From NCBI GenBank assembly GCA_947588655.1, contig CANPYS010000003.1:11904-75903 (forward strand): a DNA stretch of 64,000 nucleotides. The letters run 5' to 3'. The translations under genes and the position numbers were made by a program. This document shows positions 7,344 through 49,770 of this stretch, one piece after another (position 1 is the stretch's first letter; the number at the start of each line of letters is the position of its first letter). The notes below the pieces were generated by a model. That model was given only the letters and a program-made list of their open reading frames with translations, was not told where the DNA came from and made no database searches. Source of the stretch: an uncultured Alphaproteobacteria bacterium. Lineage in GTDB: Bacteria > Pseudomonadota > Alphaproteobacteria > RF32 > CAG-239.

Positions 7344-8321
7344 TCAAGCCCTATTATCTTTTTGCGCAAAAGCGCGTTTTAAGGCCGCCGCGCACAAGTC
7401 CATCGCGACTTCTGACGAGGCGGATTGAGAAAGGGCGTTTAGCATTAAAAAGTCGTGGATTGTGCCATTAATGCGCACGCTTGCGGTTTTAACGCCCGCC
7501 TCATTTAAGCGCATAGCAAGCGATTCGCCCTCATCGCGCAGAACATCGTTTTCATCAGTGATAATAAGGGTTGCCGGCAAGCCTGAAAGCTCTTCTTGAG
7601 AGGCATTAAGAGGGCTAGCATAAACCTCTGATCTTGTTTCTTTATCAGGCGCGTACTGCTGCCAAAACCATTGCATAGCCTGACGCGTCAACCACGGACC
7701 TTGCGCAAAAATTTCATACGATTCGGTTTCAAAATCAGCCGCCGCCACCGGATAAAGCAAAAGCATAAAAATCGGATTCGGAGCTTTATTTGCCTTTGAC
7801 ATCAGCCCCATCACAAGCGCCATATTTCCGCCAACGGAGTCGCCGGCAAGCGCCAAGCGCTCAAAATCAAGGCTAAACTTTGCGCCATGTTCCGTCATGT
7901 ATTGAAGCACCGCGAATAAATCGGTTGTTGTTTGCGGATATTGTGCCTCGGGCGATTGCTCATAAATAGGAAAAACAACTGCCGCGCCTGTTTCTAAAGC
8001 CAACGTGCGCACAAGTCGCGCATGTGTTTTATCATCGCCCATAACCCAACCGCCACCATGAATATAAAAAACAACGGGCAACGTATCAGGGGCTTTTTCG
8101 GGCTTAATAATCTGAACGCGCATTGTTCGCCCATTGCCCAAAGGAACGCTAATTTCATCAACTTCTGCCGCGGGCAGATTTTCGGTGTCTGCCTGAACGC
8201 TTAACAAAACAGCGCGCGCCTCTTGAGGCGTTAATTCATACAAGGGTTTAGCGTCGCTTTTTTCCAATGACGCGACAAATTTTGATACATCGGCTTCCAA
8301 ATACATTATTTTTCTCCTCAA
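7344..8321 (-). CDS. alpha/beta-hydrolase fold esterase/lipase (HSL-like)
   Basis: 325 aa with an HGGGW oxyanion-hole motif and a GDSVGG nucleophile elbow. The order of the His/Asp region is typical of the hormone-sensitive-lipase family. Confidence 0.8.
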   Translation of the reverse strand: MRRKIMYLEADVSKFVASLEKSDAKPLYELTPQEARAVLLSVQADTENLPAAEVDEISVPLGNGRTMRVQIIKPEKAPDTLPVVFYIHGGGWVMGDDKTHARLVRTLALETGAAVVFPIYEQSPEAQYPQTTTDLFAVLQYMTEHGAKFSLDFERLALAGDSVGGNMALVMGLMSKANKAPNPIFMLLLYPVAAADFETESYEIFAQGPWLTRQAMQWFWQQYAPDKETRSEVYASPLNASQEELSGLPATLIITDENDVLRDEGESLAMRLNEAGVKTASVRINGTIHDFLMLNALSQSASSEVAMDLCAAALKRAFAQKDNRA

Positions 8322-9340: not shown

Positions 9341-9416
9341 TGGGGCTGTAGCTCAGTTGGGAGAGCGACAGGTTCGCAATCTGTAGGTCGTGGGTTCAAT
9401 CCCCATCAGCTCCACC
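9341..9416 (+). tRNA. tRNA-Ala (anticodon CGC)
   Basis: 76-nt cloverleaf with a 7-bp acceptor stem, a G3:U70 alanine identity pair, anticodon loop TTCGCAA, TTCAATC T-loop and an encoded CCA. The 3' 45 nt form the prophage attL core. Confidence 0.9.
9372..9416 (+). repeat. attL core (45-bp direct repeat, 3' end of tRNA-Ala)
   Basis: Exact 45-bp match to 49726-49770 (TTCGCAATCTGTAGGTCGTGGGTTCAATCCCCATCAGCTCCACCA). Confidence 0.85.
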
Positions 9417-9480
9417 ACTAGGAAAATAAAGGCTTTTACAGTTTCTGTGAGAGCCTTATTTTTGTTCTAAAAACAAAGTT

Positions 9481-9502
9481 GTCCCTAATTTGTCCCTAAT
9501 TT
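9481..9502 (+). promoter_or_regulatory. putative integrase arm-type sites (tandem GTCCCTAATTT x2)
   Basis: The same tandem 11-mer is found immediately upstream of the integrase start (49573-49594). A third, partial copy lies at 50061-50076. Confidence 0.5.
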
Positions 9503-9801
9503 TGCGATTAAAAGTAATTAAAGATAATTAAAATTTTGTTGTTCATTGATGATTTACAAATTGCTTTGTATGTCGCAAAAACGTATATATGACATGCAAC
9601 CATCTTGCTAATGTCGTCAAAAGGTTTTGCAATATTGATACCAGTTTAAAATAAAACCAATGACACAAAATAAACTTGATTATTCAACACATTAGATTGA
9701 TTCTTAAGGACTCGGCGGTTTGTGATGACATAAAAATAACGTTTTGCGTGGCGGCAAAACGTTATTAAGGGCTGGTGTCTAACTAGGTTTTTATACATCA
9801 A

Positions 9802-10605
9802 TTAAGTAAGTATGTACGCGCGTCCGCGCTTTTCTTCTCGCACCGTCTGCGAGTCTGTCTGTTTCACCCCCTCCCGCCCTTGTCGTACCAATCTTCGCCT
9901 CTTACCGTTTAAGCTATCTTTGAGTTTGATAAAATAGTTTCTATCCGCTGTATTTATAAGAATTTGTACCCACTTATCAGTAATCTTTGGCATACCGTCC
10001 TCATAAAATCCGTTAGCCAACCCAAACCAGATTTCGCTTGAATATCGCTGTGCAATGTATATTAAAGCCAATGCCGAGCTATCAAGCATAGGCTCACAAC
10101 TGATTGAAGTCCTTATGCCTTTATTATAAGCATACTTCAAAATATTCAACCTATTTTCAAGTTTCGGAGCGTTCGGCTCAAAATGTTTAAGCCGCTTGTT
10201 GTCCATACTTCCGATTGTAACTCTTAACTCAAGCTTATATAGCTTTTCAGGACAATTCGTTATAATATAATCTATAACGTCAAACATCTCGGGGTTGCCC
10301 TTTGTTACCACAAGGACATTATTGTTGTTATTCAAGAGCATGTAAAGATAATGCTTATAATACTGCTTGTTCAAAGGGCTTATGTCGTGCATAGTCGGAA
10401 ACATTATCACGCCGTCAACGGTTTTTTGCAATAAGTTTCCTGCCGTTTTGGTCAAGTGCAACACTGGCTTTTCAAAATCAAAATCAGGCTCAAAGCGTTG
10501 CATTATCCGCCGAGCATAGCAATATTTACAACCATTCACACACCCCTTTTGAAAATTAAAGCTGTGCTTAGCCCACTCCTGTACTCCTGTTTTTCCTTTA
10601 GTCAT
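9802..10605 (-). CDS. radical SAM protein (SplB / DNA-photolyase-like, COG1533-type)
   Basis: 267 aa. The N-terminal CX3CX2C cluster GCVNGCKYCYARR is a radical SAM motif of the kind seen in SplB-like proteins. This is the last gene of the leftward early operon. Confidence 0.55.
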   Translation of the reverse strand: MTKGKTGVQEWAKHSFNFQKGCVNGCKYCYARRIMQRFEPDFDFEKPVLHLTKTAGNLLQKTVDGVIMFPTMHDISPLNKQYYKHYLYMLLNNNNNVLVVTKGNPEMFDVIDYIITNCPEKLYKLELRVTIGSMDNKRLKHFEPNAPKLENRLNILKYAYNKGIRTSISCEPMLDSSALALIYIAQRYSSEIWFGLANGFYEDGMPKITDKWVQILINTADRNYFIKLKDSLNGKRRRLVRQGREGVKQTDSQTVREEKRGRAYILT

Positions 10606-10934
10606 TTCACACGCTCCCCAAGATGTATTGCGTAGACATCGCCGTCATATTGTAAGTCGGTATACCTGCCTGGCATGGTTGTTATTTCTTTAATTTTGAA
10701 AGTCATTTTTTCAGGGTTTTTGCGGTACGCCTTTTGAAACTCAACAAAAGGTGCATTCATAGAAAATATATTAAAAATGACATATCCTTGTTTTGAAAAA
10801 TCATAACCTTTGCAAATATTCATAATCCGTTTAAGCCAAAAGGGTGTGGCTTTCCGGAATTCTTGTTTTTTGCGCCCGCTTTTTATTTCCTCAAACCAGT
10901 GATCAGTGAGGACAAGTTTTAATGTGTTAGTCAT
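10602..10934 (-). CDS. ASCH-domain protein
   Basis: 110 aa. The N-terminal LKLVLTDHWFEEIKSGRKKQEFRK fits the ASCH/PUA-like beta-barrel signature. It overlaps the radical SAM gene by 4 bp. Confidence 0.5.
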   Translation of the reverse strand: MTNTLKLVLTDHWFEEIKSGRKKQEFRKATPFWLKRIMNICKGYDFSKQGYVIFNIFSMNAPFVEFQKAYRKNPEKMTFKIKEITTMPGRYTDLQYDGDVYAIHLGERVK

Positions 10935-11145
10935 TTACCGCTGTTTTCCTTATCTTAAATGGTTGTGAGTAAAAGCCAAAATATATAACTCCCTCGCCGA
11001 TTTCTTCGTTTACTGAAAATTCAAGCGTTGAGCCAAAATAAGGCTTAAATACTCTGTTTAGTTCTGAAAATGAAAGACTTTTTATTGTAGTTTTACCGCT
11101 TGCCTTCATGTGTCCTAAATTTTCATAAATAATTTCATAACTCAT
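10927..11145 (-). CDS. hypothetical phage protein
   Basis: 72-aa ORF translationally coupled within the operon. Confidence 0.35.
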   Translation of the reverse strand: MSYEIIYENLGHMKASGKTTIKSLSFSELNRVFKPYFGSTLEFSVNEEIGEGVIYFGFYSQPFKIRKTAVND

Positions 11146-11635
11146 GTGTTACCTCCTCCATAAAGTTTGGGCGCTCATTATAAGTTGCAACAACCGTGCA
11201 TTTTTCATAAAACTCTGGTGGCTCTAAATCCTCCGCCTCGCTCGGCAAAGATTTTATATGCCAAAACCCTCTATCTTTTATAACGTAGCCATAAGTATTA
11301 TCCGCTGTTTTTAACCAATCGCCCTCGTATATTGGTATGTTATTTCGGTCGTATAAGCCGGTAAATTGTTCAACGATGCCCAATTCTACGCTAAACCAGT
11401 CGTAATCTTCACAATAACTGTTACTGCTTATATCGTCTATAATTCTATCTTTTTGTTTTTTGGTTATATCTAGTGGACTTAAAGCATCCACAAGATTATT
11501 GAGCGAAAAGCCGATGCCGCCGTCTGAATAGACAGCGATGTTATCAACATAAAAACCAACCTCTTTTTCTTCGTTATTATCGTCGTAAGTTGTTATCTCA
11601 ATGTATGCTCTAAACTTAAGCTCATCCTTGGTCAT
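11135..11635 (-). CDS. hypothetical phage protein (possibly YopX-like)
   Basis: 166 aa. The N-terminal KFRAY motif and overall size are reminiscent of the YopX family. The assignment is weak. Confidence 0.35.
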   Translation of the reverse strand: MTKDELKFRAYIEITTYDDNNEEKEVGFYVDNIAVYSDGGIGFSLNNLVDALSPLDITKKQKDRIIDDISSNSYCEDYDWFSVELGIVEQFTGLYDRNNIPIYEGDWLKTADNTYGYVIKDRGFWHIKSLPSEAEDLEPPEFYEKCTVVATYNERPNFMEEVTHEL

Positions 11636-12173
11636 TGCCTATCCTTTTTATATCTAAGTGTTCAAAAACAATTTTCTCTGGTAATATGCCGTTACAAAAA
11701 TATCCCACGGCAAAACTTGGTTGCGCGCCGCAATTTATAAAACGAACGCGTCTATCAAATATCATTAATTCAAGTCCTCCCCCCCCCTTAAAAATCCTGT
11801 AAGGCGCGCTGTCATTAAGCCATGTCATAGGCAACATTAACGCAAAAGGCTTTTTAAAAGACTGTACAAGTTCCACAATCTTTGCCTTGTTACTAAAAGG
11901 CGGGTTTGAAACAATCAAATCAAAATCCGGAGCTTTCTGTGCTAATAAGTCATTTTGAAAACTATAAAAATCAACGCCTGTATCTTTATGTGTGTAAATA
12001 ACTTTATGTCCGGCCGCCGATAATACTTTAACAAACTGGCTTTCTTTTTTATCAAACGGACACCAAATTGTTTTTCCTTTAAACCTTTCTAAATATTTTA
12101 GCAATGGTTCAACAGCATAAGCAGGAGTATAACATTCGTCGTTTTTCTCTAGGCTTTTATAGACATACAACAT
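11622..12173 (-). CDS. phage Dam-family DNA N6-adenine methyltransferase
   Basis: 183 aa with an N-terminal ECYTP motif and the catalytic SNPPF (motif IV, D/N/S-PP-Y/F). The gene contains an in-frame C9/G9 homopolymer at 11779-11787. Confidence 0.7.
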   Translation of the reverse strand: MLYVYKSLEKNDECYTPAYAVEPLLKYLERFKGKTIWCPFDKKESQFVKVLSAAGHKVIYTHKDTGVDFYSFQNDLLAQKAPDFDLIVSNPPFSNKAKIVELVQSFKKPFALMLPMTWLNDSAPYRIFKGGGGLELMIFDRRVRFINCGAQPSFAVGYFCNGILPEKIVFEHLDIKRIGNDQG

Positions 12174-12383
12174 CGTTTACCCCTTTCCAAGCAACTACGG
12201 TCAACTCGTCATAACTAATCATTTTTAATCCTTTCAAGCGCCTTTTTTGCAATAATTGCAAAGCAATGTCCGCAACCGCTGTCAAAGCCCTCGCCACCGT
12301 TTAAAGGGCAATCATCGTCATTAACGCAAGACGGCGCGTTTTCTAGAATTTCCCTTAAAGCCTCTATCAATATTAATTCTCTA

Positions 12384-12617
12384 TCAGTCATTTACAATCT
12401 CCCAATCAAACATTGTTATAAACCTTGTGTTTATTTGCTTTAATCGTTGCGTTACTTTGCCTTCTTCTTGGTAATAAAGCCTTATATCATACTTACTGTT
12501 AGACTTGTTTTTTACATAATCAAGAAAATAAACACCTTTAGAATATTTCAAGGTGGCACTTTTTCCAGCTCGTAGTGCCGGTAATACGTCCTCAAACCTC
12601 ATCTGATTGCTCCTCAA
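12384..12617 (-). CDS. hypothetical phage protein
   Basis: 77-aa ORF with no recognisable motif. Confidence 0.35.
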   Translation of the reverse strand: MRSNQMRFEDVLPALRAGKSATLKYSKGVYFLDYVKNKSNSKYDIRLYYQEEGKVTQRLKQINTRFITMFDWEIVND

Positions 12618-12659
12618 TATGCTTTCTTATACCATCAGAAAATTTATCAAATGTATATC

Positions 12660-13256
12660 TCATATTTGACAAATCCTTTCAAATATATATTTACCGTCTT
12701 CAGGTTTTACGGCGTTTCTTAAACACTTTCTAATATCCGTTGTTCCTTTAAACTCGCTCAAATCAAAACCGTATTCTTTTTCCATCTCGCCTATATCATC
12801 TCTTATGTCTGTAAAAGTCTTTTCCGTGTGTTCTTGCGCCATAATATAATCACTTGACCAATAACAATGTCTATCCATCGTAAAGGTCGGCTGTATCAGC
12901 GGTTTATAGTACGGCTTAACGTTCTCAATAACCCACTTGCCTTTGAAAAAGCTCTGCAACCAAATAATCTCTTGATAAAGTGTCATATCAGGGTACTTTA
13001 AGCTTTCGTCATAATAACGTGTCATCTGCAAAACAGAGTGTGTCGGGCAAGGCGGACTAGCCCAAATAAAATCAAACTCTCTAAAGTGCTTACGCAAATA
13101 TTCGTGTGCGTCATCAATGATAACATTGTCATTCGGGAAGAAGTGCTTATAGATATTCGCAACCTCGGATACAATCTCAACCGCTGTTATATCGTGGTTA
13201 TCACCCCAAAGCTTACGATTTCCGCCTATTCCTGCATAAAGGTTTAATATCTTCAT
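12660..13256 (-). CDS. short DNA (cytosine-5)-methyltransferase-like protein
   Basis: 198 aa with motif I LYAGIGG, motif IV ASPPCP (catalytic Cys) and motif VI ENV. It lacks a recognisable TRD and motifs IX/X, so it may be split, truncated or atypical. Confidence 0.6.
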   Translation of the reverse strand: MKILNLYAGIGGNRKLWGDNHDITAVEIVSEVANIYKHFFPNDNVIIDDAHEYLRKHFREFDFIWASPPCPTHSVLQMTRYYDESLKYPDMTLYQEIIWLQSFFKGKWVIENVKPYYKPLIQPTFTMDRHCYWSSDYIMAQEHTEKTFTDIRDDIGEMEKEYGFDLSEFKGTTDIRKCLRNAVKPEDGKYIFERICQI

Positions 13257-13696
13257 TGTTCAAGCATCTCCTCCAAAACTCTTTTAACCTGTGCAGGCGT
13301 GCCGTGGTATATCTTAAGGTTAGTGTATGAATCACGCAATTCTATTAATCCGGAGGTCAGGTTTTTCACGCAACAAACATTTAAAATATTATTGGTTATT
13401 GTAAAGCAATTCTTTCCAAGCGTTTTATATGCTTTATTTTTTTTCGCCCAATCTCTTAACTGCTCAAACGTCTTAACCTCTTTTGGGCGTTCAATACAAC
13501 ATTCAGTCCAGTCTTTGCCTTTGAAGTCGTCAATATTAAAATAACCTATGATTTGCCTATTGCCGCTAAACAGTACCCAAAACATATCTGTGATCTTTGG
13601 CTCTTTTTCCCAAGCACAAACGCACCCTTCTTTATCTTGAGTTATCCAATTAACCCAAGAGAAAACGTCAAAAACACTACTCGCTTTCGTCATCAT
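13253..13696 (-). CDS. hypothetical phage protein (Cys-rich)
   Basis: 147-aa ORF coupled to neighbouring genes. Confidence 0.4.
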   Translation of the reverse strand: MMTKASSVFDVFSWVNWITQDKEGCVCAWEKEPKITDMFWVLFSGNRQIIGYFNIDDFKGKDWTECCIERPKEVKTFEQLRDWAKKNKAYKTLGKNCFTITNNILNVCCVKNLTSGLIELRDSYTNLKIYHGTPAQVKRVLEEMLEQ

Positions 13697-13752
13697 AAAA
13701 GCTCCTACTTTCTCAAATTCCCTTAAATGCTCTATAGCCTTTAAAGCATCTC

Positions 13753-14028
13753 TTAGTTAAGCGCTGTGTCAGGAGCGGCGCACTCCTCAATTCTAAAAGC
13801 GTAATATTTATCGCCAAAGGAAAATTTAACCTCAAAAAGCGGTTGCCTCTCTGTTTTCATTGTGAGTAAAAGAGGAAAAATGCGTGACAATAATGTCTTT
13901 TGATATTTTTTAAAAAATTCCTCCATATCATCAGGCACAAAAACGTTAATATCAATAAAACCGTCTTCCTCTTCGGTTAATTTTATTTCTTTTACCTCAT
14001 TCTCGGTTATTTCTTTTTTAATTGTCAT
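13753..14028 (-). CDS. hypothetical phage protein
   Basis: 91-aa ORF. Confidence 0.35.
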   Translation of the reverse strand: MTIKKEITENEVKEIKLTEEEDGFIDINVFVPDDMEEFFKKYQKTLLSRIFPLLLTMKTERQPLFEVKFSFGDKYYAFRIEECAAPDTALN

Positions 14029-14293
14029 TTACCGCCCCTTTCGTGTGTTTGTTATAATTAAAATTGCTTTCAAGCCAACATTTCATATTGGTAATTTTAT
14101 CCTGATCCCAAGTATTTTTGCGCAAGCGCTCTAAATCCGTAAGCACCGGCGCAATAGCGCTCCAAGCGTTTTTATTTGATAAAGCAACGGCATTGTTTGC
14201 TACGCGGATAACAAGCTCATCAAAAGTTTGTTGGCGCATAATTACCGGTTTGTTGCGCTTGATGAAATATTTAAGATTGCTAAACATGTGCAT
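14018..14293 (-). CDS. hypothetical phage protein
   Basis: 91-aa ORF. Confidence 0.35.
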   Translation of the reverse strand: MHMFSNLKYFIKRNKPVIMRQQTFDELVIRVANNAVALSNKNAWSAIAPVLTDLERLRKNTWDQDKITNMKCWLESNFNYNKHTKGAVNDN

Positions 14294-14445
14294 TTTCCTT
14301 TACCTCCTTGGTTTTAAGTTGCTTTAAAAGTTCTTTTGCTTTAACCTTAACGCGTGCAAGCTCGCTAAAGGGGTTGCCGTAATTTTCGGTTGCTAAATCC
14401 TCTAGCGCGCGGATAATGCGCTTTTCGGCTGTGATGTTAAACGGG

Positions 14446-14631
14446 TTAAGCCGCATTTGAATCCTCCTTTTTCTTTGGCGTTGGGCGCGTCATACAATAT
14501 GTTGTGAAAAGCTTAAGCACGCGTTGGCGGCTCTCAACGTTTCTAAATTCCTGTGAACGCGTGCCACGCGTCCAGTCTTGTAAAGCGCGGTGAGTTAATT
14601 CTAAAATATCTTGTTTGTTCATTTTTGGCAT
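14446..14631 (-). CDS. hypothetical small basic protein
   Basis: The listed ORF was trimmed to an internal ATG (MPKMNKQD...) that abuts the dut stop codon and has an AGGGAG RBS. Confidence 0.3.
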   Translation of the reverse strand: MPKMNKQDILELTHRALQDWTRGTRSQEFRNVESRQRVLKLFTTYCMTRPTPKKKEDSNAA

Positions 14632-14633
14632 AA

Positions 14634-15110
14634 CTAAATACTCCCTGTTGATCCGAAGCCGCTTGCGCCGCGCTCGGTTGGTGTGAGCGTATCTGCTTTT
14701 ATAACGGTTGGTTTGAATATTGGGCAAACAACAAGTTGAGCAATCCGCTCAAGCGGCTCTATGGTTTGCGCAAGATTGCTTGCATTGATAAGGGTTATCC
14801 ATATCTCGCCCCTATAAGACGCGTCTATTGTGCCAAATTGGGCAATTAAACCGCGCTTTGTTAAGCCCGAGCGCGGGCGTACTTGTAATTCATATTGCAA
14901 TGGCGTGCGTTTAGATCCGTCTTTTAATTCTTCCACAAAAAGCGGCGGCGTATCTATTTCAACAGCAATGCCGGTTGGTAAGCTGATGCGTTCGCCGGCG
15001 GCAATTTCTTTTGGCTCGTCAATGGCGGCGCGTATGTCATAACCACTATCGCCATCACGGCTTGCAAGCTCCGGAATATTTGGGAATAGATATTTAACTT
15101 TCAAATCCAT
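14634..15110 (-). CDS. dut: dUTP diphosphatase
   Basis: 158 aa carrying all five dUTPase motifs (SGYDIRA, RPRSGL, GTIDASYRGE, ERIAQL, RGASGFGSTG). Confidence 0.9.
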   Translation of the reverse strand: MDLKVKYLFPNIPELASRDGDSGYDIRAAIDEPKEIAAGERISLPTGIAVEIDTPPLFVEELKDGSKRTPLQYELQVRPRSGLTKRGLIAQFGTIDASYRGEIWITLINASNLAQTIEPLERIAQLVVCPIFKPTVIKADTLTPTERGASGFGSTGSI

Positions 15111-15345
15111 CTCTCTGCTCCTCTGTTAAGTTTTCATAATCTGGCACGCGCGCTAAAATGGTTACGGTAATAAGATTACCTACAAACCAACTCGATTTGC
15201 TTATAATCTGCGCTTGCGGCGCTGGTAGATTATTGTTGAGCCGATAGTCTTTTTTTGTTTCATCAACAGGGTAATATGTTCCAACACACGGTTTGCAATT
15301 TGAAACCATAAAATAGTAATCGCCTGCGGCAAGCGTGTTATTCAT
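15094..15345 (-). CDS. hypothetical phage protein
   Basis: The ORF was trimmed to an internal Met to avoid a long overlap. The start is uncertain. Confidence 0.3.
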   Translation of the reverse strand: MNNTLAAGDYYFMVSNCKPCVGTYYPVDETKKDYRLNNNLPAPQAQIISKSSWFVGNLITVTILARVPDYENLTEEQRDGFES

Positions 15346-15364
15346 ATATTGTGAAGTGAGCTTT

Positions 15365-15616
15365 TTAGCTGTTTGACTGAGTTGCATTTGCCGCCTCCAC
15401 CCTTGATAAAAACCACTCAATAAGATTTTCTTTGAGGTAGCCAACCCTGCCGCCCTCCATACGCACAGGATCTTTAATGCCTATGCCCTTGCTATCGTAG
15501 ACTGCCATTGTTTCGGTTTTATAAAGACCGCCGAGATAATGCCCAATTTTTGCGCGCGCCACTACCGGCGGTAATGACTCCTCCAAATCTGCGCGAAGTT
15601 TTGTTAAATTAACCAT
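15365..15616 (-). CDS. excisionase/AlpA-family DNA-binding protein (putative Xis)
   Basis: 83 aa. The C-terminal RVGYLKENLIEWFLSR resembles the winged-helix Xis/AlpA motif. Confidence 0.4.
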   Translation of the reverse strand: MVNLTKLRADLEESLPPVVARAKIGHYLGGLYKTETMAVYDSKGIGIKDPVRMEGGRVGYLKENLIEWFLSRVEAANATQSNS

Positions 15617-15631
15617 AAAAACAATCCTCCC

Positions 15632-15871
15632 TTATGAATGTGATGGTAATGTTAAGTAATAATGTACGTTGAGGTCGCTCATCTGTTCGTCTTTGAACCT
15701 ATCGCCCGCCCAAAAGGCAAGCCGAACTTGATAATACGGCGCATGATTGTTAAAGCCCGGTTTGTTGATGCGGTTTGGATTTGGCACAAGCACAACATAA
15801 TCTTTCATTTGCGCATCGGTTGTTTGTTCGGGCTTGTTTTGCGGATAAGGTTGCCAATTATTCATAATCAA
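15632..15871 (-). CDS. hypothetical phage protein
   Basis: 79-aa ORF. Confidence 0.3.
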   Translation of the reverse strand: MIMNNWQPYPQNKPEQTTDAQMKDYVVLVPNPNRINKPGFNNHAPYYQVRLAFWAGDRFKDEQMSDLNVHYYLTLPSHS

Positions 15872-16169
15872 CCTCGCCGAATTGTTGGCGCAAGCTATTA
15901 ATCTCTTGCTCCAAAATTACGCTACTAACCTCAATTTGTTTCAAAATCTGTACACAATTATCAAAAGATTTGTTATATGCGTACATATTGTAAGCTGTAA
16001 AGATAACCGCCGCCGCGCCAAAAGCATATAATGCGAGGGTTTTAACCTTGTCTTTGAGCTTTGAGCAAAATATTAACTGCGTTTGCTTTTTTATGCTTTT
16101 ATACTCGTAGATCGTTATTTGAGGTCTTGGCGTTGGCGAAGTTTTGAATTTATTTAATAAGTCTGACAT
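15858..16169 (-). CDS. hypothetical membrane protein (first gene of leftward early operon)
   Basis: 103 aa with a central TM helix. It lies directly downstream of the OL-like operator region. Confidence 0.4.
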   Translation of the reverse strand: MSDLLNKFKTSPTPRPQITIYEYKSIKKQTQLIFCSKLKDKVKTLALYAFGAAAVIFTAYNMYAYNKSFDNCVQILKQIEVSSVILEQEINSLRQQFGEVDYE

Positions 16170-16209
16170 AACTTTAATCTCCCTTAAATTTCATTAACTG
16201 GGATTATTT

Positions 16210-16262
16210 ATAATCGTATTATGATTATTCTGTCAAGAAAAAAATAATCGCATTGTGATTAT
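16210..16262. promoter_or_regulatory. OL-like operator pair (2 x ATAATC-N7-GATTAT)
   Basis: 19-bp palindromic operators at 16210-16228 and 16244-16262. They are identical in form to those in the cI/cro intergenic region. Confidence 0.6.
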
Positions 16263-16366
16263 TTTTATAAACAGGTAATTAAAAACCGCTTAAATAAAGA
16301 CTTTAAGCGGTTGAAAAAATTTATTTGAAATGTTAATTTTATCTTAAAAACATCAAAATCAAACGG

Positions 16367-16882
16367 TTATTTGCTCCACAAAGATAAACCGCCTATTTGT
16401 AATATCGGTGTTGCTTGAGGTTCTTTTTCCGATTCTTGGTAATATTCACCGTAAGGGTTGCCATTATAATGATTGTTGATGAGCGCATAAAAATTATTTA
16501 CTATATTTTCGTAGCAATCATTGCCCTGCATACTAAAAACTTCTTCGCTTGTCTTTAAGTCAACAAAGGATATGGCATAATGATATGAATCTTGGAGGCA
16601 TAATACGCCACAACAACCGCCGGTTCGTCTTACTATATTGTCCGATAGCTCATAACGTGATGTGCGTTTTGCATATCCGCTATCTTTTGTGTCGTTTTTT
16701 ACATACAGCTTATAGCCTGAATTTATAAGCGATTGCTTCAAAACTTGGTGCATTTCTGATAAGTTTGCGGTTGATATAGAAACCGTCTTTTGATTAGTGT
16801 CTATTTGCTGATAAGAAAAGATGTTTTGTGTTTCTGCACATGCGGATAATAGACACACAAAAAGTAATATATATTTTTTCAT
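16367..16882 (-). CDS. prophage lipoprotein (possible moron / superinfection exclusion)
   Basis: 171 aa with a signal peptide and LSAC lipobox. It is co-transcribed downstream of the repressor. Confidence 0.5.
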   Translation of the reverse strand: MKKYILLFVCLLSACAETQNIFSYQQIDTNQKTVSISTANLSEMHQVLKQSLINSGYKLYVKNDTKDSGYAKRTSRYELSDNIVRRTGGCCGVLCLQDSYHYAISFVDLKTSEEVFSMQGNDCYENIVNNFYALINNHYNGNPYGEYYQESEKEPQATPILQIGGLSLWSK

Positions 16883-17242
16883 TTAGTCCCTCTCTTTAAC
16901 TTTATCTGATAGTTTTTCCGGTTGCGAAGTATGTTTTTCATCTTGTGCCGTTTTAAATACATTCGTATTATTTGTATTTTGAGGTGTGGCAAATTTGCGG
17001 AAAGTGCGCAACATTTCCCTTTCTTCAGGCGTTGTTTCTTTTGGTTGCATATCAAGAGGCAAAAGCTCATAAGGCTCAACCTCTAAAACTTCCGCAAGAC
17101 GGCGCATCCAATTTGTGCTAAACTCTATTTGGTCGTTTTCAAGCTTTTGAATAGTGCCTTGTGTAATACCTAGCTTTTCCGCAAGCTCTACCTGAGTCAT
17201 GCCGTGCGCCTTTCTTAATACTTTAATGCGATTTTTTTCCAT
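16883..17242 (-). CDS. cI-like repressor (XRE-family HTH)
   Basis: Started at MEKNRIKVLRKAHGMTQVELAEKLGITQGTIQKLE, preceded by an AAGAGGTG RBS. The HTH_XRE signature is clear. It is divergent from the cro-like gene. Confidence 0.8.
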   Translation of the reverse strand: MEKNRIKVLRKAHGMTQVELAEKLGITQGTIQKLENDQIEFSTNWMRRLAEVLEVEPYELLPLDMQPKETTPEEREMLRTFRKFATPQNTNNTNVFKTAQDEKHTSQPEKLSDKVKERD

Positions 17243-17267
17243 ATTATCACCTCTTTTCTGATTAATT

Positions 17268-17401
17268 ATAATCATTTTATGATTATTTTTCAACAAAAAT
17301 AAGGTCAAAGCAAAAAATAATCACAAAAAAATTATTTTTAATTAGCCTTAATTTGTTTTAATTGATACCATAAATTTAAGAAATAATCACAAAACGATTA
17401 T
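17268..17401. promoter_or_regulatory. OR-like operator region (three ATAATC-N7-GATTAT sites) with divergent promoters
   Basis: Operators at 17268-17286, 17317-17335 (degenerate right half) and 17383-17401 lie between the repressor and cro starts. Confidence 0.6.
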
Positions 17402-17453
17402 TTTTTTATTGCATTTTTTTCTTTTTGCGAACATCATAGTAGCGGAGGTAAAA

Positions 17454-17669
17454 ATGATGACACTTCAAAAATATTTGGAACAGACCAACAAACGTGTTGC
17501 GGATTTGGCGCGCGATTTTAACGTTGTCCATTGCGTTGCGCGGCGTTGGGCAAATGGCGAAGTTATGCCGAGCCGACAAACCATAGAAAAAATCTATGAG
17601 TGGAGCGGTGGCATGGTTGAGCCTAATGATTTTTATAATATTGGCGAAACAGAAAAAGATGAGGGCTAG
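17454..17669 (+). CDS. Cro/YdaS-like HTH regulator
   Basis: 71 aa starting at MMTLQKYLEQT with a GGAGGTAAAAATG RBS. It is small and helical, and sits in the position and orientation of cro. Confidence 0.6.
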   Translation: MMTLQKYLEQTNKRVADLARDFNVVHCVARRWANGEVMPSRQTIEKIYEWSGGMVEPNDFYNIGETEKDEG

Positions 17670-17672
17670 ATA

Positions 17673-18338
17673 ATGCTGAATGCACTTGCTTATATGACGA
17701 AAGACGAGCGTAAAGATCTTGCTAAATATGTGACGGATTTGGAAGCCGCCACAAAAGTTGACACTGAAATAATTTTCAGGGCGATGTGCGAGAAAGGCGT
17801 TAATATCAATACGGCAATCCATTGTAATATGATAAAATGCCAAACATTAATAGAGATGGGCGAGCCTATTTATGCACTTACCGTTGATGACTATGCGCAA
17901 ATTTGCGCACCTAAAACAGAAGAACAGCGCCGGAAAGTCCTATGTGATGTACTGACGGAAAAGAAACTTAATTTTGAAAAAGGAGTAAAAACCATGGAAA
18001 ACAACAGTAAATATAGCGAAACACGCATTGGAAAGGTTTTAGATAAAAAGCCTGAACCGAAAGACGAGCCTGTTATGGATTGCGTTGCAAAAAAAGATGC
18101 CGAGATTGGCGGCATTGCCGCTGACCGCTTGCGTTCTTTTGTTGAACGCATTGAACGGCTTGACGAGGAAAAACGCGGGATAAGTAGCGATATAAACGAT
18201 GTGTTCGCTGAAGCTAAAAGTGCCGGTTTTGATGTCAAGATTATGCGCGTTATCTTGAAGTTGCGTAAAATGAATGCGGCGGACAGAGATGAGCAAGAGA
18301 GTTTAACGGAGCTATACTGCAAGGCTCTTGATATGTAA
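17673..18338 (+). CDS. GapR (DUF2312)-like nucleoid-associated domain fused to an unknown N-terminal domain
   Basis: The C-terminal 80 aa (RLRSFVERIERLDEEKRGISSDINDVFAEAKSAGFDVKIMRVILKLRKM) closely match Caulobacter GapR/DUF2312. The N-terminal 120 aa are unassigned. Confidence 0.6.
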   Translation: MLNALAYMTKDERKDLAKYVTDLEAATKVDTEIIFRAMCEKGVNINTAIHCNMIKCQTLIEMGEPIYALTVDDYAQICAPKTEEQRRKVLCDVLTEKKLNFEKGVKTMENNSKYSETRIGKVLDKKPEPKDEPVMDCVAKKDAEIGGIAADRLRSFVERIERLDEEKRGISSDINDVFAEAKSAGFDVKIMRVILKLRKMNAADRDEQESLTELYCKALDM

Positions 18339-18359
18339 AGCCTCCATAAGGACAGGAAA

Positions 18360-19129
18360 ATGTGCGTATTAGAGGGGGATTGTTTTGAGTTGTTAAATAC
18401 TGTGGCGGACGGCAGTATTGATATGATATTGACTGATCCGCCTTACGGCATTGCTAACGACACAAAAATCACAAGACTTGGCGGATCGCAAAAATTTGCG
18501 AAAGCAAAGGCAATTACGCACGATTTCGGCGCGTGGGATAAATTTGGTGGCTTTGATGATTTTATGAACTTTACTAAGCGTTGGGTTGATTTGTGTGTTC
18601 CGAAATTAAGGGGGGGGGAATGTTTATTGCATTTTTTGATAGGGATAGGATAAATTTTTTATCGCACTACTTGCAATCTCAACACGGATTTAAGTGTAAA
18701 GGGTATTTTTCTTTTATAAAACAAAATCCCGTACCGCAAGCACGCAAGGTAAAATTTCAAAACGGTTGGGAAGAAGCTGTTATGCTCCAAAAGCCGGATG
18801 GAAAGCTCACTTTCAATTATGAGAATGGTCAACAACCTGATTATATTATATTGCCAATATGCAGTGGCAATGAACGGACAGAACACCCAACGCAAAAGCC
18901 GCTTAAGGCTATGTATCCTTTTATCAAATATTTCACGAACAAAAACGATTTAATTTTAGATCCGTTTGCCGGTAGCGGCACAACTGCGGTTGCGGCGCGC
19001 AACTTAGGGCGGCGGTTTATTGTCATGGAAAAAGAGCCAAAATATGCGGAAATAATCCGCAATCGGCTCAATAACTTTAACACAAAGCACGGCAAGCCAA
19101 ACGCCGCGCAAATTAGTTTTAACTTATAA
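18360..19129 (+). pseudogene. beta-class N6-adenine/N4-cytosine DNA methyltransferase interrupted by a frameshift in a G9 tract
   Basis: The N-terminal ORF (18360-18653) carries motif IV DPPY. The C-terminal ORF (18593-19129) carries HPTQKP and motif I DPFAGSGTT. The two are joined out of frame at GGGGGGGGG (18610-18618). A tract of 10 (or 7) Gs would restore the frame. Confidence 0.75.
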
Positions 19130-19148
19130 TTTTAGGGAGATTTTTAAC

Positions 19149-19448
19149 ATGGTTGAGGAAGTAGAAAAGAAAAAAACAGGTTGGGTTGTTCCTGCCGACA
19201 GCGTGGAGGTTATGCGGAACGAGGACGGCGAACTGTTTAAGGAGGCTTTTATCGCTATGCATGATTATAATATGTGTGGTGCGGTTGATTTTCAAAAGCT
19301 ATCGCCGGCGGCAAGAATCCTGTTTAATTCTTTCAAAAATACAATGGATGCAAATTTGTTGCGGTATGAGGCAATTAAAAAGCGGAATCAAGAAAACAGC
19401 AAGGGAAAAAGAAAAAGCGGAGGACGAAAAGGCAATGCTCGTAATTAA
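19149..19448 (+). CDS. hypothetical protein with basic C-terminal tail (candidate iteron-binding protein)
   Basis: 99 aa ending in KGKRKSGGRKGNARN, immediately upstream of the iteron array. Confidence 0.4.
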   Translation: MVEEVEKKKTGWVVPADSVEVMRNEDGELFKEAFIAMHDYNMCGAVDFQKLSPAARILFNSFKNTMDANLLRYEAIKKRNQENSKGKRKSGGRKGNARN

Positions 19449-19800
19449 AACCCAAATGAACCCAAACGAACCCACTGGGTTGTTTTGGTTTAAAAAACAG
19501 CAAAAACGAACCCACTGGGTTATTTTGGTTCAAAAAATAGCAAAAATGAACCCACTGGGTTATTTTGGTTTAAAAAATAACAAAAATGAACCCACTGGGT
19601 TATAAAAAATGAAATGAGGTAAAAATATGTGCCTGAAACCCAATAAAATGGAAATTAAAAAAAATTTGGTAACCCACTGGGTTATTTTGGCTCAAAAAAT
19701 TGCAAAAATGAACCCAAACGAACCCACTGGGTTATTTTGGTTCAAAAAACAGCAAAAACGAACCCAAACGAACCCACTGGGTTATTTGGGTGTAAAAAAC
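19447..19800. repeat. iteron array, putative phage replication origin
   Basis: Seven copies of the near-palindrome AACCCACTGGGTT (19469, 19509, 19549, 19589, 19671, 19716, 19771). The first four sit at exact 40-bp phasing inside a 40-bp unit GAACCCACTGGGTTATTTTGGTTYAAAAAAYAGCAAAAAY. Extra GAACCCAAAC half-sites are present. An adjacent GGTTTAAGG-type A/T-rich repeat block follows at 19840-19905. Confidence 0.8.
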
Positions 19801-19905
19801 AAAAGAAAAAGAACCAAAAAGAAAAATAAAAATATATTTATGGGTTGTTGGTTTAAAGGATATTGGTTTAAGGGTTTTAGGTTAAAGGTTTAAGGATTCA
19901 GGGAT

Positions 19906-20190
19906 ATGGTAAAGGGGTTATTAGGGGAAAAGGAAAAGGTTGAACAACTTGTGGATAAATCCATGGGGTTTGTGGATAAATGCTTGCTTACAAACGCGCC
20001 TTTGCAGACAAGCCTTACGGCTTACCCTTGCAAAGACTGCGTTTTGCAAGCATTTTGGATGATTTGCGCTAAAAAAGCGCAAAGGTGCGCAATCTTACGA
20101 TTGCTTATTGCGGCTTACGCCGCAGGCTTAGCAAGGGATAAGGGGCGCGTTTTGGGCTTTGTCCGTAAATTTCTGTCTATTACTGGTTGA
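19906..20190 (+). CDS. hypothetical phage protein
   Basis: 94-aa ORF. Confidence 0.35.
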   Translation: MVKGLLGEKEKVEQLVDKSMGFVDKCLLTNAPLQTSLTAYPCKDCVLQAFWMICAKKAQRCAILRLLIAAYAAGLARDKGRVLGFVRKFLSITG

Positions 20191-20205
20191 GAGTTTGAAA
20201 GGATT

Positions 20206-20601
20206 TTGTCTATGTTAAGAAGAATAGAAACGATTGAAGACGTTAGATTTGAGGTATTGCGTTATTTTGAAACGCTTGCGGCGCTCCCAAAGCTCCGCCG
20301 CCCTGACTATGCTAAAAACTACATGTGGCTTTTCATCGTTACGGAGTGTACGGCGGAAGATGTTGAAAATACACGCTTTAGCCCTACAAACATTGATATT
20401 GCCGACTGTTGGTATATGGACGCAAACTTTATGTGTAAATTAACTCGTTTTGAATTTGATTTGCTTGCGGCACGCGTTCGTGAGCGCCCAACACCTTGGA
20501 AAGTTGTGTGTCATAAACTCGGATTCACACGGCAGATGTTGGATTTGTATCTTAGAAAAGCCCTTGAAAAGTTATACATTGAAATGAAAAATGCTTTATA
20601 A
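20206..20601 (+). CDS. putative late-gene regulator (Q-like/activator), C-terminal HTH-like
   Basis: 131 aa. The C-terminal WKVVCHKLGFTRQMLDLYLRKALEKL is HTH / sigma-70 region-4-like. The gene sits directly upstream of the promoter-terminator region and the terminase genes. Confidence 0.35.
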   Translation: MSMLRRIETIEDVRFEVLRYFETLAALPKLRRPDYAKNYMWLFIVTECTAEDVENTRFSPTNIDIADCWYMDANFMCKLTRFEFDLLAARVRERPTPWKVVCHKLGFTRQMLDLYLRKALEKLYIEMKNAL

Positions 20602-44956: not shown

Positions 44957-45011
44957 GGGGGTTTGCAAAGGGGGAGCAATCCCCCTTGCATTACGTTTCG
45001 GCGAAGCCGAA
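44947..45011 (+). promoter_or_regulatory. hairpin cluster 3' of VR (putative DGR target-recognition / IMH-associated structure)
   Basis: Three consecutive stem-loops: CCCCT-TTA-AGGGG, then TGCAAAGGGGGA-GCAA-TCCCCCTTGCA (GNRA loop), then TTCGGC-GAA-GCCGAA. Confidence 0.5.
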
Positions 45012-45106
45012 TCTGTATTTTTAAAAAATTAAGAACTTGTTAAAACATTGGTTTTAATTTGATTACGGGATTGAATGGGCGATTTGTCGGGCGCTGTTCC
45101 CTCGTG

Positions 45107-45211
45107 GCTTCTCCTGGGCGGCTCTGTTAATAACGGCACGTCCGGTGGGGTGTTTTGCTTTAACGTTAACAACGCACCTACGAACACGAATTGGAACAAC
45201 GGCGCTTCGCC
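45107..45211 (+). repeat. DGR template repeat (TR)
   Basis: Noncoding copy of VR. It contains in-register AAC codons (TTT AAC GTT AAC AAC ... AAC ACG AAT TGG AAC AAC). Confidence 0.9.
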
Positions 45212-45336
45212 AACCTTATAGCACAGGTAAAAAGCTCTAAAATGCCCTATCAGTTCCGCGCTAGGTATGGCGAAAATTAAGCTGTAAAAGGCACGGATTA
45301 GTAAGCGCAAGCCTAAAGTCCGTGAAGCTATAAGAG

Positions 45337-46488
45337 ATGAAGACATACAACGGATTGTTTGATAAAATTGTTGACGAAGACAATATTCAGAAAGCCATCT
45401 TAAAGGCTTCGCTCGGCAAACGAAAGAAAGCAAGCGTCCGGCGTACGCTGTGTAATATCTCTGAAATAGCGCACAAATTGAGCCAAGAGCTTAAAACTGA
45501 TACTTGGCGACCGGTTGAAGCACACCAAACAACGCAGATTAATGACGGTGTTGAGCTTAAAAAACGGTATATTGTTTGCCCGAATTTTGCGAGTGAACAA
45601 TGCGTGCATCACGCAATCATGAATATATGCGAGCCGCTGTTTCGCAAGAAGTTTTACCAGTACTCATGCGGAAGTGTCAAAGGGCATGGTGGCGATCAGG
45701 CTAAAAAGTACATTGAAAAGATATTGAAAAAATATCCGGCTAAAACAAAATATGTTGCAAAGCTTGATATTAAGAAATTCTTTGCCAATGCCAAGCCGAG
45801 TTTTATATTTCATGAAGTCAGGCGCACTATTCGCGATCGGCGGGTACTTAGGCTGTTTGCGTTGATTTTGCGCGCAAATAAACAAATTGTAGATGGCAAG
45901 GTAATAAAAGGCGGCATTCCAATTGGGTTTTATACTAGTCCGATATTTGCCAATATCTTACTCAATCCCCTTGATCACTACATTAAAGAAGTACTTGGCA
46001 TTGAATATTATGTGCGGTACATGGACGATATAATAATGTTTAGCCCGAATCGCCGCAAGCTCAAACGTGCTTGCCTATCAATCAGGGAATGGTTAGAGAC
46101 TCGCAAGCTTCAGCTCAAACCGATATGGCAGGTTCACCGGATGACAAGTGTTAATTTTATTGGGTATCAATTTAAGAAGAGTGGTCTTATTCGTATTCGC
46201 GATAGGATATTCTTAAAATCCGTTCGCTGTGTGCGCCGTGTGGCGCGCAAAAAGGCGGAAAGGCGTATGACAATACATGATTGTCTGCGCATCTTAAGCT
46301 ATATGGGGCGTTTCAAGAACGCCCAAACATATAGCGCATTTCGGCGGTATATTTCCCCGCTGATTAATATACGCGAAATGCGCAAGCGTGTTTCGCGGCA
46401 CTTCAAAAAACTGGCAAAAACGCAAAAAGAAAGGATGGGTAACAAATATGATATGGCGACATGCAGAGGGCAACCAGCGACCGCGTGA
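45337..46488 (+). CDS. DGR reverse transcriptase
   Basis: 383 aa with RT motifs IPIGFYTSPIFANILLNPLD and YVRYMDDIIMF (YxDD). The N-terminal LFDKIVDEDNIQKAILKASLGKRKK is typical of DGR RTs. Confidence 0.9.
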   Translation: MKTYNGLFDKIVDEDNIQKAILKASLGKRKKASVRRTLCNISEIAHKLSQELKTDTWRPVEAHQTTQINDGVELKKRYIVCPNFASEQCVHHAIMNICEPLFRKKFYQYSCGSVKGHGGDQAKKYIEKILKKYPAKTKYVAKLDIKKFFANAKPSFIFHEVRRTIRDRRVLRLFALILRANKQIVDGKVIKGGIPIGFYTSPIFANILLNPLDHYIKEVLGIEYYVRYMDDIIMFSPNRRKLKRACLSIREWLETRKLQLKPIWQVHRMTSVNFIGYQFKKSGLIRIRDRIFLKSVRCVRRVARKKAERRMTIHDCLRILSYMGRFKNAQTYSAFRRYISPLINIREMRKRVSRHFKKLAKTQKERMGNKYDMATCRGQPATA

Positions 46489-48091: not shown

Positions 48092-48335
48092 TTTTAAAAT
48101 TGACGAGGACGCTCGTTTTGCAAACATTGTTTTGGCAGATTCAGAGCGTCAACCTTGTGAAATATGGACTCGCGTCATGGGGTATTTTCGCCCTGTTTCC
48201 GAATTTAATAAGGGGAAAAAGTCGGAATTTAAAAAACGCAAATGTTTTACGGAGGCAAAAGCGCTTGTGGGAATGGAAAATATTAAGATTCAAGCCTCGC
48301 TTGATGATGGTTGTTCTTGCGTCGCGGCAGAATGA
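48078..48335 (+). CDS. small protein with NrdD-like glycyl-radical C-terminal motif
   Basis: 85 aa. TRVMGYFRPVSEFNKGKKSEFKKR aligns with the class III RNR C-terminus (RVCGYLG...FNAGKQEEVKRR). Four Cys are available for a Zn ribbon. Confidence 0.35.
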   Translation: MMLNNFKIDEDARFANIVLADSERQPCEIWTRVMGYFRPVSEFNKGKKSEFKKRKCFTEAKALVGMENIKIQASLDDGCSCVAAE

Positions 48336-49564
48336 TTGTCTAGGGCGGCAATGGCGGCGGTAAATTTTTGCGGTGCAAGATGGGCATAGCGCATTGTCAT
48401 ATCTAGCGTTTTATGTCCCATGAGCTCCTTGACCGTGTATAAATCAACCCCCGCCATGACAAGCCAACTTGCGTATGTATGGCGCAAAGTGTGAAACACA
48501 GCTTTTTGCTGTCTGTCTGTTATCCCCTGATTAAATAGCTCATCTACAATTTCTTGATAACGATCAGATATTTCATGTAATGCGCCTCCGTTTATATCTT
48601 GAAAAATAAGACTTTCGCCTGTGATATTTAGCGATTCCACCCGTTTTTTTAACATAGTATGTATAATTTGCGGCATAGGAATATTGCGTGCGTTATGATT
48701 TTTAGATTTGCGAATCGTTAAGAATCCTGTATCAAAATTTATATCGTTTGCTTTTAATTCGTATAATTCGCCGGCTCTACAACCGCAATAAAGGGAAACA
48801 AGTGCCATTTCATAAACTTGCGATGTTTGGTTATCTTTGTAATATTGATATGTAAACGCTCTCTTGTCTTTTGGTTGTATTTTTTTTAAGCGCTCAAGCA
48901 ATATTTCCGCCTCAGCATGTGTAAAAAACCGCAATCTCTGATTTTCCAGTGGTAATAGTTTAATGTGTTGCGTTGGATTTTCCTTTGCTTTTTTCCATAA
49001 TATGGCTGTTTTGAAAATATGCCGGCAAAGTTTAATAACATGATTAATGGTTGCGGCGGCATATTTTTGCTCTTGGGATGTGCTTTTACCTTTTAGCATA
49101 GATTGTTTTATTTTTTCTATATCTTCAACTGTGATGGCTTTGAGCGGCTTTTCGCCTATATATTTCTTAATATGATTGTTGAAGTATTGTCTTTCGCATT
49201 TTATCCCTTTAGGTGTTTTTGTTCCATGTTGGGCGTTTTCATACAGATCATAAAAAGCGGCAAGGGTTATGCTCTCATTTTCATTTTCTTGCGCGGCTTT
49301 TCTTATAGACGCGTTTTTTTCTTTAAGCGATGTGTAACCCGAACCTTTTTTAATGTTCTCCCGAATCGTTTCCACTTCTGCCGCCGCCTTTGCCTCTGTA
49401 TAGCCCTCAGATTCCCAACCGAACCCCTCATCTCTTTGCTTTCCGTTTATTGTGTAACGCAGAATAAAATATCTGTCAAAACGAATGCCATTTTTACGCG
49501 TTGGGTGTGAGCGATAATAAACGCCTTTATATCTTGTTTTTTGTTTTGTGCTTTTCTCAACCAT
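48290..49564 (-). CDS. int: tyrosine integrase
   Basis: 424 aa. The C-terminal catalytic region HTLRHTYASWLVMAGVDLYTVKELMGHKTLDMTMRYAHL carries the R-H-R-Y residues. Arm-type repeats precede the start, and attR lies 160 bp away. Confidence 0.9.
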   Translation of the reverse strand: MVEKSTKQKTRYKGVYYRSHPTRKNGIRFDRYFILRYTINGKQRDEGFGWESEGYTEAKAAAEVETIRENIKKGSGYTSLKEKNASIRKAAQENENESITLAAFYDLYENAQHGTKTPKGIKCERQYFNNHIKKYIGEKPLKAITVEDIEKIKQSMLKGKSTSQEQKYAAATINHVIKLCRHIFKTAILWKKAKENPTQHIKLLPLENQRLRFFTHAEAEILLERLKKIQPKDKRAFTYQYYKDNQTSQVYEMALVSLYCGCRAGELYELKANDINFDTGFLTIRKSKNHNARNIPMPQIIHTMLKKRVESLNITGESLIFQDINGGALHEISDRYQEIVDELFNQGITDRQQKAVFHTLRHTYASWLVMAGVDLYTVKELMGHKTLDMTMRYAHLAPQKFTAAIAALDNHSAATQEQPSSSEA

Positions 49565-49725
49565 ATAAAGTTGTCCCTAATTTGTCCCTAATTTTTACAT
49601 TAAATGCTATTAAGGGAAATTAATGATAATTAAAAGAATGATAGAGCAAAAAGCGCTTGAAGTCAAGGGTTTTGTACTTACGAATTAATGCTAATTAAAA
49701 TCATTTAAAGTCACATTAAATCAGA

Positions 49726-49770
49726 TTCGCAATCTGTAGGTCGTGGGTTCAATCCCCATCAGCTCCACCA
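49726..49770 (+). repeat. attR core (45-bp copy of tRNA-Ala 3' end)
   Basis: Identical to 9372-9416. Three further upstream nt also match, with one mismatch at the junction. Confidence 0.85.

Follow-up and report, generated by a model that had tools for sequence, protein, structure and literature searches.

Two homopolymer tracts in prophage methyltransferase genes

The stretch of DNA analyzed here (64 kb in its full length, referred to below as the window) belongs to an uncultured alphaproteobacterium (contig CANPYS010000003.1 of assembly GCA_947588655.1) and includes a 40.3-kb prophage with two unrelated DNA methyltransferase (MTase) genes, MTase1 and MTase2. Each contains a run of nine G:C pairs, and these two runs are considered here as candidate contingency loci. 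Located at 11779-11787 (C9) and 18610-18618 (G9) on the forward strand, they alone among the G and C runs of the window reach 7 nt, the next-longest being one G6. At a GC content of 41.4%, independent and identically distributed bases would give 0.05 G runs and 0.02 C runs of at least 9 nt, which bears out the view of an initial annotation that such runs are very rare. The two genes together occupy ~2% of the window, and the probability that two randomly placed runs would both fall inside them is P ~4e-4. Read directly from the sequence, both have the properties of a homopolymer contingency locus: a run of at least ~7 nt inside an open reading frame (ORF), in which a change of +/-1 nt alters the frame.

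MTase2 (18360..19129, + strand) encodes a beta-class N6-adenine/N4-cytosine DNA MTase and is frameshifted (OFF) in the window. Its tract (18610..18618, +) forms codons R84-G87, AGG GGG GGG GGA, when the gene is ON, that is, at G10 or G7. The G9 of the window amounts to a -1 frame shift and separates an ORF containing DPPYG (18360..18653) from an ORF in another frame containing FAGSGTT (18593..19129). That these two parts are out of register, and that one additional G would fuse them, had been claimed by the initial annotation and proved correct, as the G10 protein of 256 amino acids (aa) is a full-length match to PF01555 (E 1e-42; positions 1-220 of the 221 in the profile). In this protein, DPPYG (motif IV, residues 26-30) precedes FAGSGTT (motif I, residues 203-209), and this order of motifs together with the full-length profile match places it in the beta class. 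It also matches phrog_67, and its relatives in the PDB include a Helicobacter pylori N6-adenine MTase (5hek, 3e-35) and CcrM (6pbd, 2e-28).

The OFF state of MTase2 leaves two shorter reading frames. The N-terminal product (18360..18653, +; 97 aa) retains only the DPPY motif IV and stops after 11 out-of-frame codons; the same ORF is called in the comparison loci L340, L368 and L370. The C-terminal ORF (18620..19129, +; 169 aa) begins at an ATG located 1 nt past the tract, carries motif I (FAGSGTT) and is reported by gene callers in L340, L344, L346 and L001-L005. The Met that follows the tract is invariant among close, tract-bearing relatives, and the G-run might provide this predicted ORF with a ribosome-binding site (Shine-Dalgarno sequence). 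Features of this kind, along with a run as long as 9 nt, would suit a recoding explanation, in which G9 still gives full-length MTase2 by transcriptional slippage or ribosomal frameshifting, or in which the 97-aa and 169-aa products form an active split enzyme. However, the length of the DNA tract varies naturally and by itself accounts for the ON and OFF states, and we regard recoding as very improbable. Transcriptional slippage in bacteria is known mostly from A/T runs, which likewise counts against it.

MTase1 (11622..12173, - strand) encodes a 183-aa orphan amino-methyltransferase with an NPPF motif and is in frame (ON) in the window. Its tract (11779..11787, -; C9 on the + strand and hence G9 in the gene) is read as K-G-G-G-G at codons 129-133, and translation across it (...IFKGGGGLEL...) agrees with the in-frame reading given by the initial annotation. 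G9 is the ON length, and with G8 or G10 a stop is reached within ~5 codons and the last ~50 residues are lost, the called products being 135 aa (G8) and 134 aa (G10) instead of 183 aa. The Dam-family label given earlier to this protein did not hold, as it matches neither PF02086 (MethyltransfD12) nor PF05869 (Dam). It does match phrog_799 ('DNA methyltransferase', 1.6e-32) and, weakly, PF13651 (29 bits); PF05175 lies below threshold, and neither NCBIfam nor a sequence search of the PDB gave a match. For its AlphaFold model (pLDDT 83.6), the nearest structures found by Foldseek are TrmM, ZCCHC4, M.TaqI and CamA, all N6-adenine MTases, and the template-modeling scores of 0.4-0.55 (TrmM, ZCCHC4, M.TaqI) identify a generic N6-adenine MTase fold only. 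In the model, the Gly run is predicted to lie in a loop between a helix (122-129) and a strand (135-139).

Tract-length polymorphism and tract conservation

The same phage was retrieved from other metagenomes by way of contigs that encode exactly the neighboring proteins DUF6291, YopX-like, dUTPase and GapR-like. The retrieved loci come from at least 10 samples and several projects and are 99.4-100% identical to the window at the nucleotide level, and the lengths of both tracts differ among them. For MTase2, G9 (OFF; called products of 97 aa and 169 aa) occurs in the window and in five further samples (L340, L344, L346, L347 and L370), and G10 (ON; called product of 256 aa) in three (L341, L343 and L369), so that the in-frame allele predicted by the initial annotation exists in nature. 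For MTase1, G9 (ON; 183 aa) is found in the window and in three further samples (L349, L352 and L356), G10 (OFF; 134 aa) in three (L350, L354 and L363) and G8 (OFF; 135 aa) in one (L351). L349 (G9) and L350 (G10) share one SNP (single-nucleotide polymorphism) haplotype over 9402-12196 (2.8 kb) and differ only in the MTase1 tract, while the MTase2 G10 allele is found on three haplotypes and its G9 allele on two. The tract changes are therefore recent and recurrent. Polymorphism of a tract among near-identical genomes is a defining property of contingency loci, and it is observed here directly, with natural G8, G9 and G10 alleles.

An alternative raised by the initial annotation is homopolymer sequencing error, in which case the true MTase2 tract of the window would be G10 and the frameshift an artifact of sequencing or assembly. 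Homopolymers of at least 9 nt are error-prone on several platforms, and some of the comparison contigs have low coverage. However, independent assemblies of five other samples, drawn from two or more projects, contain the identical G9 allele, and those of three contain G10. OFF alleles are likewise found in relatives that have diverged, and the cultured phages BIP-1 and BMP-1 have them in their GenBank records. In addition, seven A8/T8 runs of the window lie, all in frame, in intact ORFs, as do 27 A/T runs of at least 7 nt; one of these ORFs has 2627 aa, and the assembly of the window is thus not prone to homopolymer errors. Tract lengths vary across independent assemblies of the same phage, and sequencing error as the source of the tract states is effectively excluded; that the window itself carries a misassembled G10 is hardly credible.

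In an indel census of 52.5 kb of aligned sequence, homopolymer indels outside the two tracts were found only at one A8 and one C5/C6, the remaining indels were confined to three divergent patches, and variation was seen in 0/29 observations of 7-mers and 0/4 observations of T8. The A8 (19657-19664) lies in codons 4-6 of a small ORF (19627..19893); L341 and L348 have A9 there and a shorter called ORF, of 67 aa, and the run may represent a third variable homopolymer of this phage. The C5 (~9863-9867) is located near the 3' end of an ORF that weakly resembles radical S-adenosylmethionine (SAM) proteins (9802..10605, -) and is C6 in L349, L350, L354 and L355, with a product of 271 instead of 267 aa. 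The contigs L353, L357, L347 and L342 terminate in, or no more than 30 nt from, one of the two MTase tracts. These ends fit assembly-graph ambiguity and are not proof of heterogeneity within a sample; length heterogeneity within samples or loss of coverage at poly-G is possible.

Both tract states are known for six samples (the window and L341/L354, L343/L351, L369/L363, L370/L356 and L347/L352), and exactly one MTase is in frame in each, with MTase1 ON and MTase2 OFF in three and the reverse in three. One contig from DRR848556 carries both tracts, and a dUTPase-based look-up for single contigs extending across both returned short contigs only. As the six samples represent about four independent haplotypes (P ~0.06, not significant), this opposition of the two MTase states is suggestive only. 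It would be explained if the tracts formed a coupled two-bit switch that keeps one MTase, and never both or neither, in the ON state; the progeny would then bear either of two methylation 'coats' instead of merely being methylated or not. Among phages of the gut and rumen, tract-switched MTases might even be frequent, given that the tract is retained in diverged lineages of both families and that 16 clusters of MTase1 homologues are broken there, but this wider proposal of a coupled switch in a common class of genes is speculative, and we think it unlikely.

Conservation of the tracts was observed directly at the DNA level in diverged relatives. Close relatives of MTase2 (73-92% aa identity) all retain the run at the same codons, mostly as aga-G8-t (ON), once as G9-atg (ON) and in one lineage as cga-G9-t (OFF); this OFF lineage is present in several assemblies, including a metagenome-assembled genome (MAG) at NCBI, and L001-L005/L011 carry G9 where G8 would be ON. 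Among 10 MTase2 relatives, 57/70 (81%) of the columns in which the amino acid is conserved are encoded by two or more codons, and the 5/5 other conserved Gly columns use at least three codons each, whereas the Gly codons of the tract are GGG in 10/10, although GGG makes up 13-15% of Gly codons generally. Distant MTase2 homologues have LKPGGV or LRAGGI at this site and no run.

MTase1 presents a similar picture. Its relatives have G8, G9, G11 or G12, in ON or OFF register, and L331/L332 (G9) and L333 (G11) are 98.6% identical with the same flanks; L254, L333 and L336 are OFF. The residue preceding the run is variable (Q, R, N, A, E or K), and its codon ends in G throughout. At the Gly site, distant homologues have DIGL, KDGL or EKDL and no Gly run, and the protein thus does not need the run; in addition, 16 clusters of MTase1 homologues are truncated or frameshifted precisely at this site. 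Upkeep of a tract beyond what protein sequence and codon usage require is a further mark of contingency loci, and the codon patterns of both families indicate that selection probably acts on the DNA tract, not on the protein.

This conservation bears on the possibility that the tracts are non-adaptive mutational hotspots, i.e., fragile sites in dispensable MTases that decay in lysogens and vary between ON and OFF without a selected function. MTase2 is OFF in most genomes, many MTase1 homologues are truncated, and a half-length C5-cytosine MTase ORF in the same operon (described below) suggests decay of MTase genes, all of which would be expected under such a scenario. However, decay should erase or interrupt the tracts, yet they are kept in relatives with saturated synonymous sites and against codon bias. 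The OFF alleles have no second lesion and their downstream frames remain open; in every OFF allele observed, a single step would restore the frame; one haplotype includes ON as well as OFF alleles, and the phage is still excising (see below). We therefore consider a non-adaptive hotspot unlikely.

Related prophages occur in MAGs of Alphaproteobacteria recovered from gut samples, those of ruminants among them. A scan of representative genomes with a single protein found nothing, and an alignment-based rescan of these genomes found two close relatives only, both uncultured Alphaproteobacteria MAGs. Some related phages have further G/C runs of 7-9 nt (L094 at 7399-7407 and 7669-7676, L172 at 5612-5620, L093 at 1322-1329 and L092 at 5500-5506). 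Two of these are in the GapR-like region or immediately upstream of it, one is in a small ORF, and one (C8) is close to the 3' end of a third type of MTase with a DPPH motif.

Prophage architecture and known switching systems

The prophage is integrated at a tRNA-Ala gene and flanked by an exact 45-nt repeat. The left border, attL (9373..9417, +), consists of the 3' 45 nt of tRNA-Ala (9342-9417), and the right border, attR (49726..49770, +), is an exact copy of it that adjoins the integrase gene (48290..49564, -; PF00589). Contig L353 (ERZ27059539) fuses window position 9369 to 49770, which corresponds to the attP junction of the excised circle; together with the exact att repeats, it shows that the phage is active in excision. 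Both MTase genes lie between these borders, in a prophage as first annotated. Extra partial repeats (9446-9496 = 50026-50076 and 9475-9503 = 49567-49595) suggest possible earlier integration events.

A CI-like helix-turn-helix repressor (16883..17308, -; PF01381, E 1e-13) marks a divergent switch. MTase1 belongs to a leftward operon with dUTPase and a YopX-like gene, on the same strand as the repressor and downstream of it. MTase2 belongs to the rightward, cro-side operon, where it directly follows a gene for a GapR-like DNA-binding protein (17673..18338, +; PF10073, E 1.8e-31) and precedes DUF6291, TerS, TerL, a T7-type portal, the capsid and the 2627-aa virion protein. Profile searches of the neighbors (GapR-like, DUF6291, YopX-like and small ORFs) found no nuclease next to either MTase and no res/hsd domains. 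A 61-nt direct repeat of ~97% identity (19454-19514 / 19706-19766) is located among the small ORFs downstream of MTase2. A third MTase-like ORF (12660..13256, -; 198 aa), which has no homopolymer, covers only the N-terminal half of a C5-cytosine MTase (positions 1-112 of the 324 in the PF00145 profile, about a third of it; also phrog_363 and TIGR00675). It is kept in L351 and L352, whereas the L349/L350 haplotype has a 71-aa ORF in its place, and it may be a truncated or mosaic MTase.

The arrangement of these operons is relevant to the possibility of a host phasevarion, in which the MTases would be expressed in the lysogen and their switching would reprogram host genes, as mod does in Haemophilus and Neisseria. 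Prophage MTases can change host phenotype, for example PamA in Staphylococcus aureus (cited in review); MTase1 is downstream of the repressor on the same strand, making read-through expression in lysogens conceivable, and MTase2 is CcrM-like and adjoins the GapR-like gene. However, MTase2 lies on the cro side in a lytic operon, like bpm of phage BPP-1, and neither MTase is part of a Type I or Type III system. Phasevarions (Type III mod and Type I hsd of Haemophilus, Neisseria, Helicobacter and Moraxella) likewise have a repeat tract in an MTase ORF, a frameshift toggle and alternative methylomes, but their MTases are chromosomal components of restriction-modification systems that are expressed in the growing cell and have demonstrated regulons, whereas those described here are orphan MTases of a phage and belong to no mod/res or hsd system of the host chromosome. 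The phasevarion-like reading of the initial annotation is accordingly not supported for MTases that lie in early/lytic operons and lack a restriction partner, and we hold a host phasevarion to be improbable.

The closest counterpart of this prophage is BPP-1, a distant relative with which it is collinear: seven proteins (TerS, portal, tail, giant protein, reverse transcriptase, integrase and MTase) occur in the same order at 21-34% identity. The prophage has the architecture of a BPP-1-like phage with a diversity-generating retroelement (DGR), namely a collinear genome, a cI/cro region, an MTase in the bpm slot, a T7-like portal, and a variable repeat (VR), template repeat (TR) and reverse transcriptase, but the 21-34% identity of the shared proteins falls short of genus-level similarity to Rauchvirus. 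No GenBank phage was matched in a megablast search with 10500-20500. Whereas BPP-1 infects Bordetella, of 65% GC, the host here is an uncultured alphaproteobacterium of 41% GC, and its GyrB is 88-99% identical to MAG proteins that bear this name. The DGR is complete (42263-46488), with the VR at 44833-44937, the TR at 45107-45211 and the reverse transcriptase at 45337..46488; the VR forms the 3' end of an 897-aa tail-fiber ORF, and every mismatch between TR and VR is at a TR adenine. The 2627-aa ORF (33632-41515), a distant relative of bbp10, the giant virion protein of BPP-1, is unbroken despite three A8 runs.

The bpm gene (bbp30) of BPP-1 is homologous to MTase2, both being PF01555 beta-class MTases (28% identity, E 8e-26), and the two lie at the same place in their genomes, on the cro side, past the immunity switch and ahead of the terminase. 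According to GenBank records of phages whose DNA is at least 99.7% identical, bpm has a C run of C8 in BPP-1 and vB_BbrP_003, C9 in BIP-1 and C10 in BMP-1. As in MTase2, this tract is a run of 8-10 G:C pairs that differs in length among near-identical isolates, here by +1/+2; it is the sole long G/C run of the BPP-1 genome. It lies at codon ~195-197, before motif I, whereas that of MTase2 lies at codons 84-87, and the two tracts thus arose independently. The prophage also has a second, unrelated MTase with a tract of its own, unlike BPP-1. To our knowledge, bpm is the one older methylase example and has never been followed up. Liu et al. are said to have described, in J Bacteriol in 2004, the homopolymer tract of the BPP-1 methylase as a frameshift hotspot.

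Contingency loci of phages are only beginning to be recognized. PMC12633550 cites the bpm tract as polyG within the methylase gene of a phage, and a 2025 preprint on phage contingency loci, which states that contingency loci had not previously been ascribed to phages, cites it along with the polyG tracts of Fletchervirus. Homopolymer slippage in the loci of that preprint likewise produces reversible subpopulations as a form of bet-hedging, but they affect adsorption and host-range, anti-defense or lysis genes, whereas those described here affect DNA MTases and are known from comparative metagenomics. The Campylobacter jejuni prophage CJIE1 and a 2025 long-read study of gut phages were considered as precedents and set aside, as neither concerns tracts in phage MTases. 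Phage-borne, tract-switched orphan MTases are therefore an already known kind, represented by bpm, and the additions made here are a second, unrelated switched MTase and the family-wide conservation of the tracts.

Probable switching of phage DNA methylation

We regard the two runs as hypermutable tracts, i.e., contingency loci, in two unrelated orphan DNA MTase genes of an active, BPP-1-like, DGR-carrying temperate phage, and assign this interpretation a probability of about 0.75. Slipped-strand mispairing during replication would add or remove one G:C pair. For MTase2, G10 would then give the full 256-aa enzyme and G9 a 97-aa fragment without the SAM-binding motif I, which should be OFF; for MTase1, G9 would give the 183-aa enzyme, and G8 or G10 a truncated protein that should be OFF as well. 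A phage population would thus become a heritable and reversible mix of methylation states. G:C tracts in the G8-G10 range are known from Campylobacter, Neisseria and Haemophilus, and the expectation that slippage is the cause, and that the changes are reversible and frequent, draws on them.

Orphan phage MTases usually protect phage DNA from host restriction. The early/lytic location of the two operons, the lack of a restriction partner and the assignment of both proteins to orphan-MTase families make methylation of phage DNA a likelier role than regulation of the host, and tract switching probably diversifies this methylation. Its most likely use, and presumably its selective benefit, would be bet-hedging: methylated genomes would evade host restriction-modification, and unmethylated genomes would evade methylation-dependent (Type IV) restriction and spare the cost of the enzyme.

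Several points weigh against this interpretation. The slipped-strand phase variation originally proposed stands as far as length-variable, frame-toggling tracts are concerned, but the tract polymorphism was observed between samples only, and it is from this that we infer fast, reversible switching within a clone. Many of the comparison contigs have 2-5x coverage, so that an occasional tract assembly error is possible in any one of them. The A8 tract varies too, and instability is thus not confined to the MTase tracts. MTase2 is OFF in 6/9 genomes, including the window, which is compatible with relaxed selection in lysogens. Finally, enzyme activity and specificity are predicted from sequence, and the substrate of MTase1, whether DNA or RNA, is deduced from its motif, fold and family name only.

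These findings provide natural-population evidence for a temperate phage, hosted by an uncultured bacterium of the gut or rumen, in which two unrelated MTases are under homopolymer switches, with tracts conserved at the DNA level across whole phage MTase families. They affect the annotation of MTase 'pseudogenes' in viromes. If the switches are adaptive, the methylation state of a phage would be a hedged, heritable trait, with consequences for its passage through restriction and methylation-dependent defense. Methylation-based linking of phages to hosts in metagenomes would be affected as well, since one phage could then carry different motifs.

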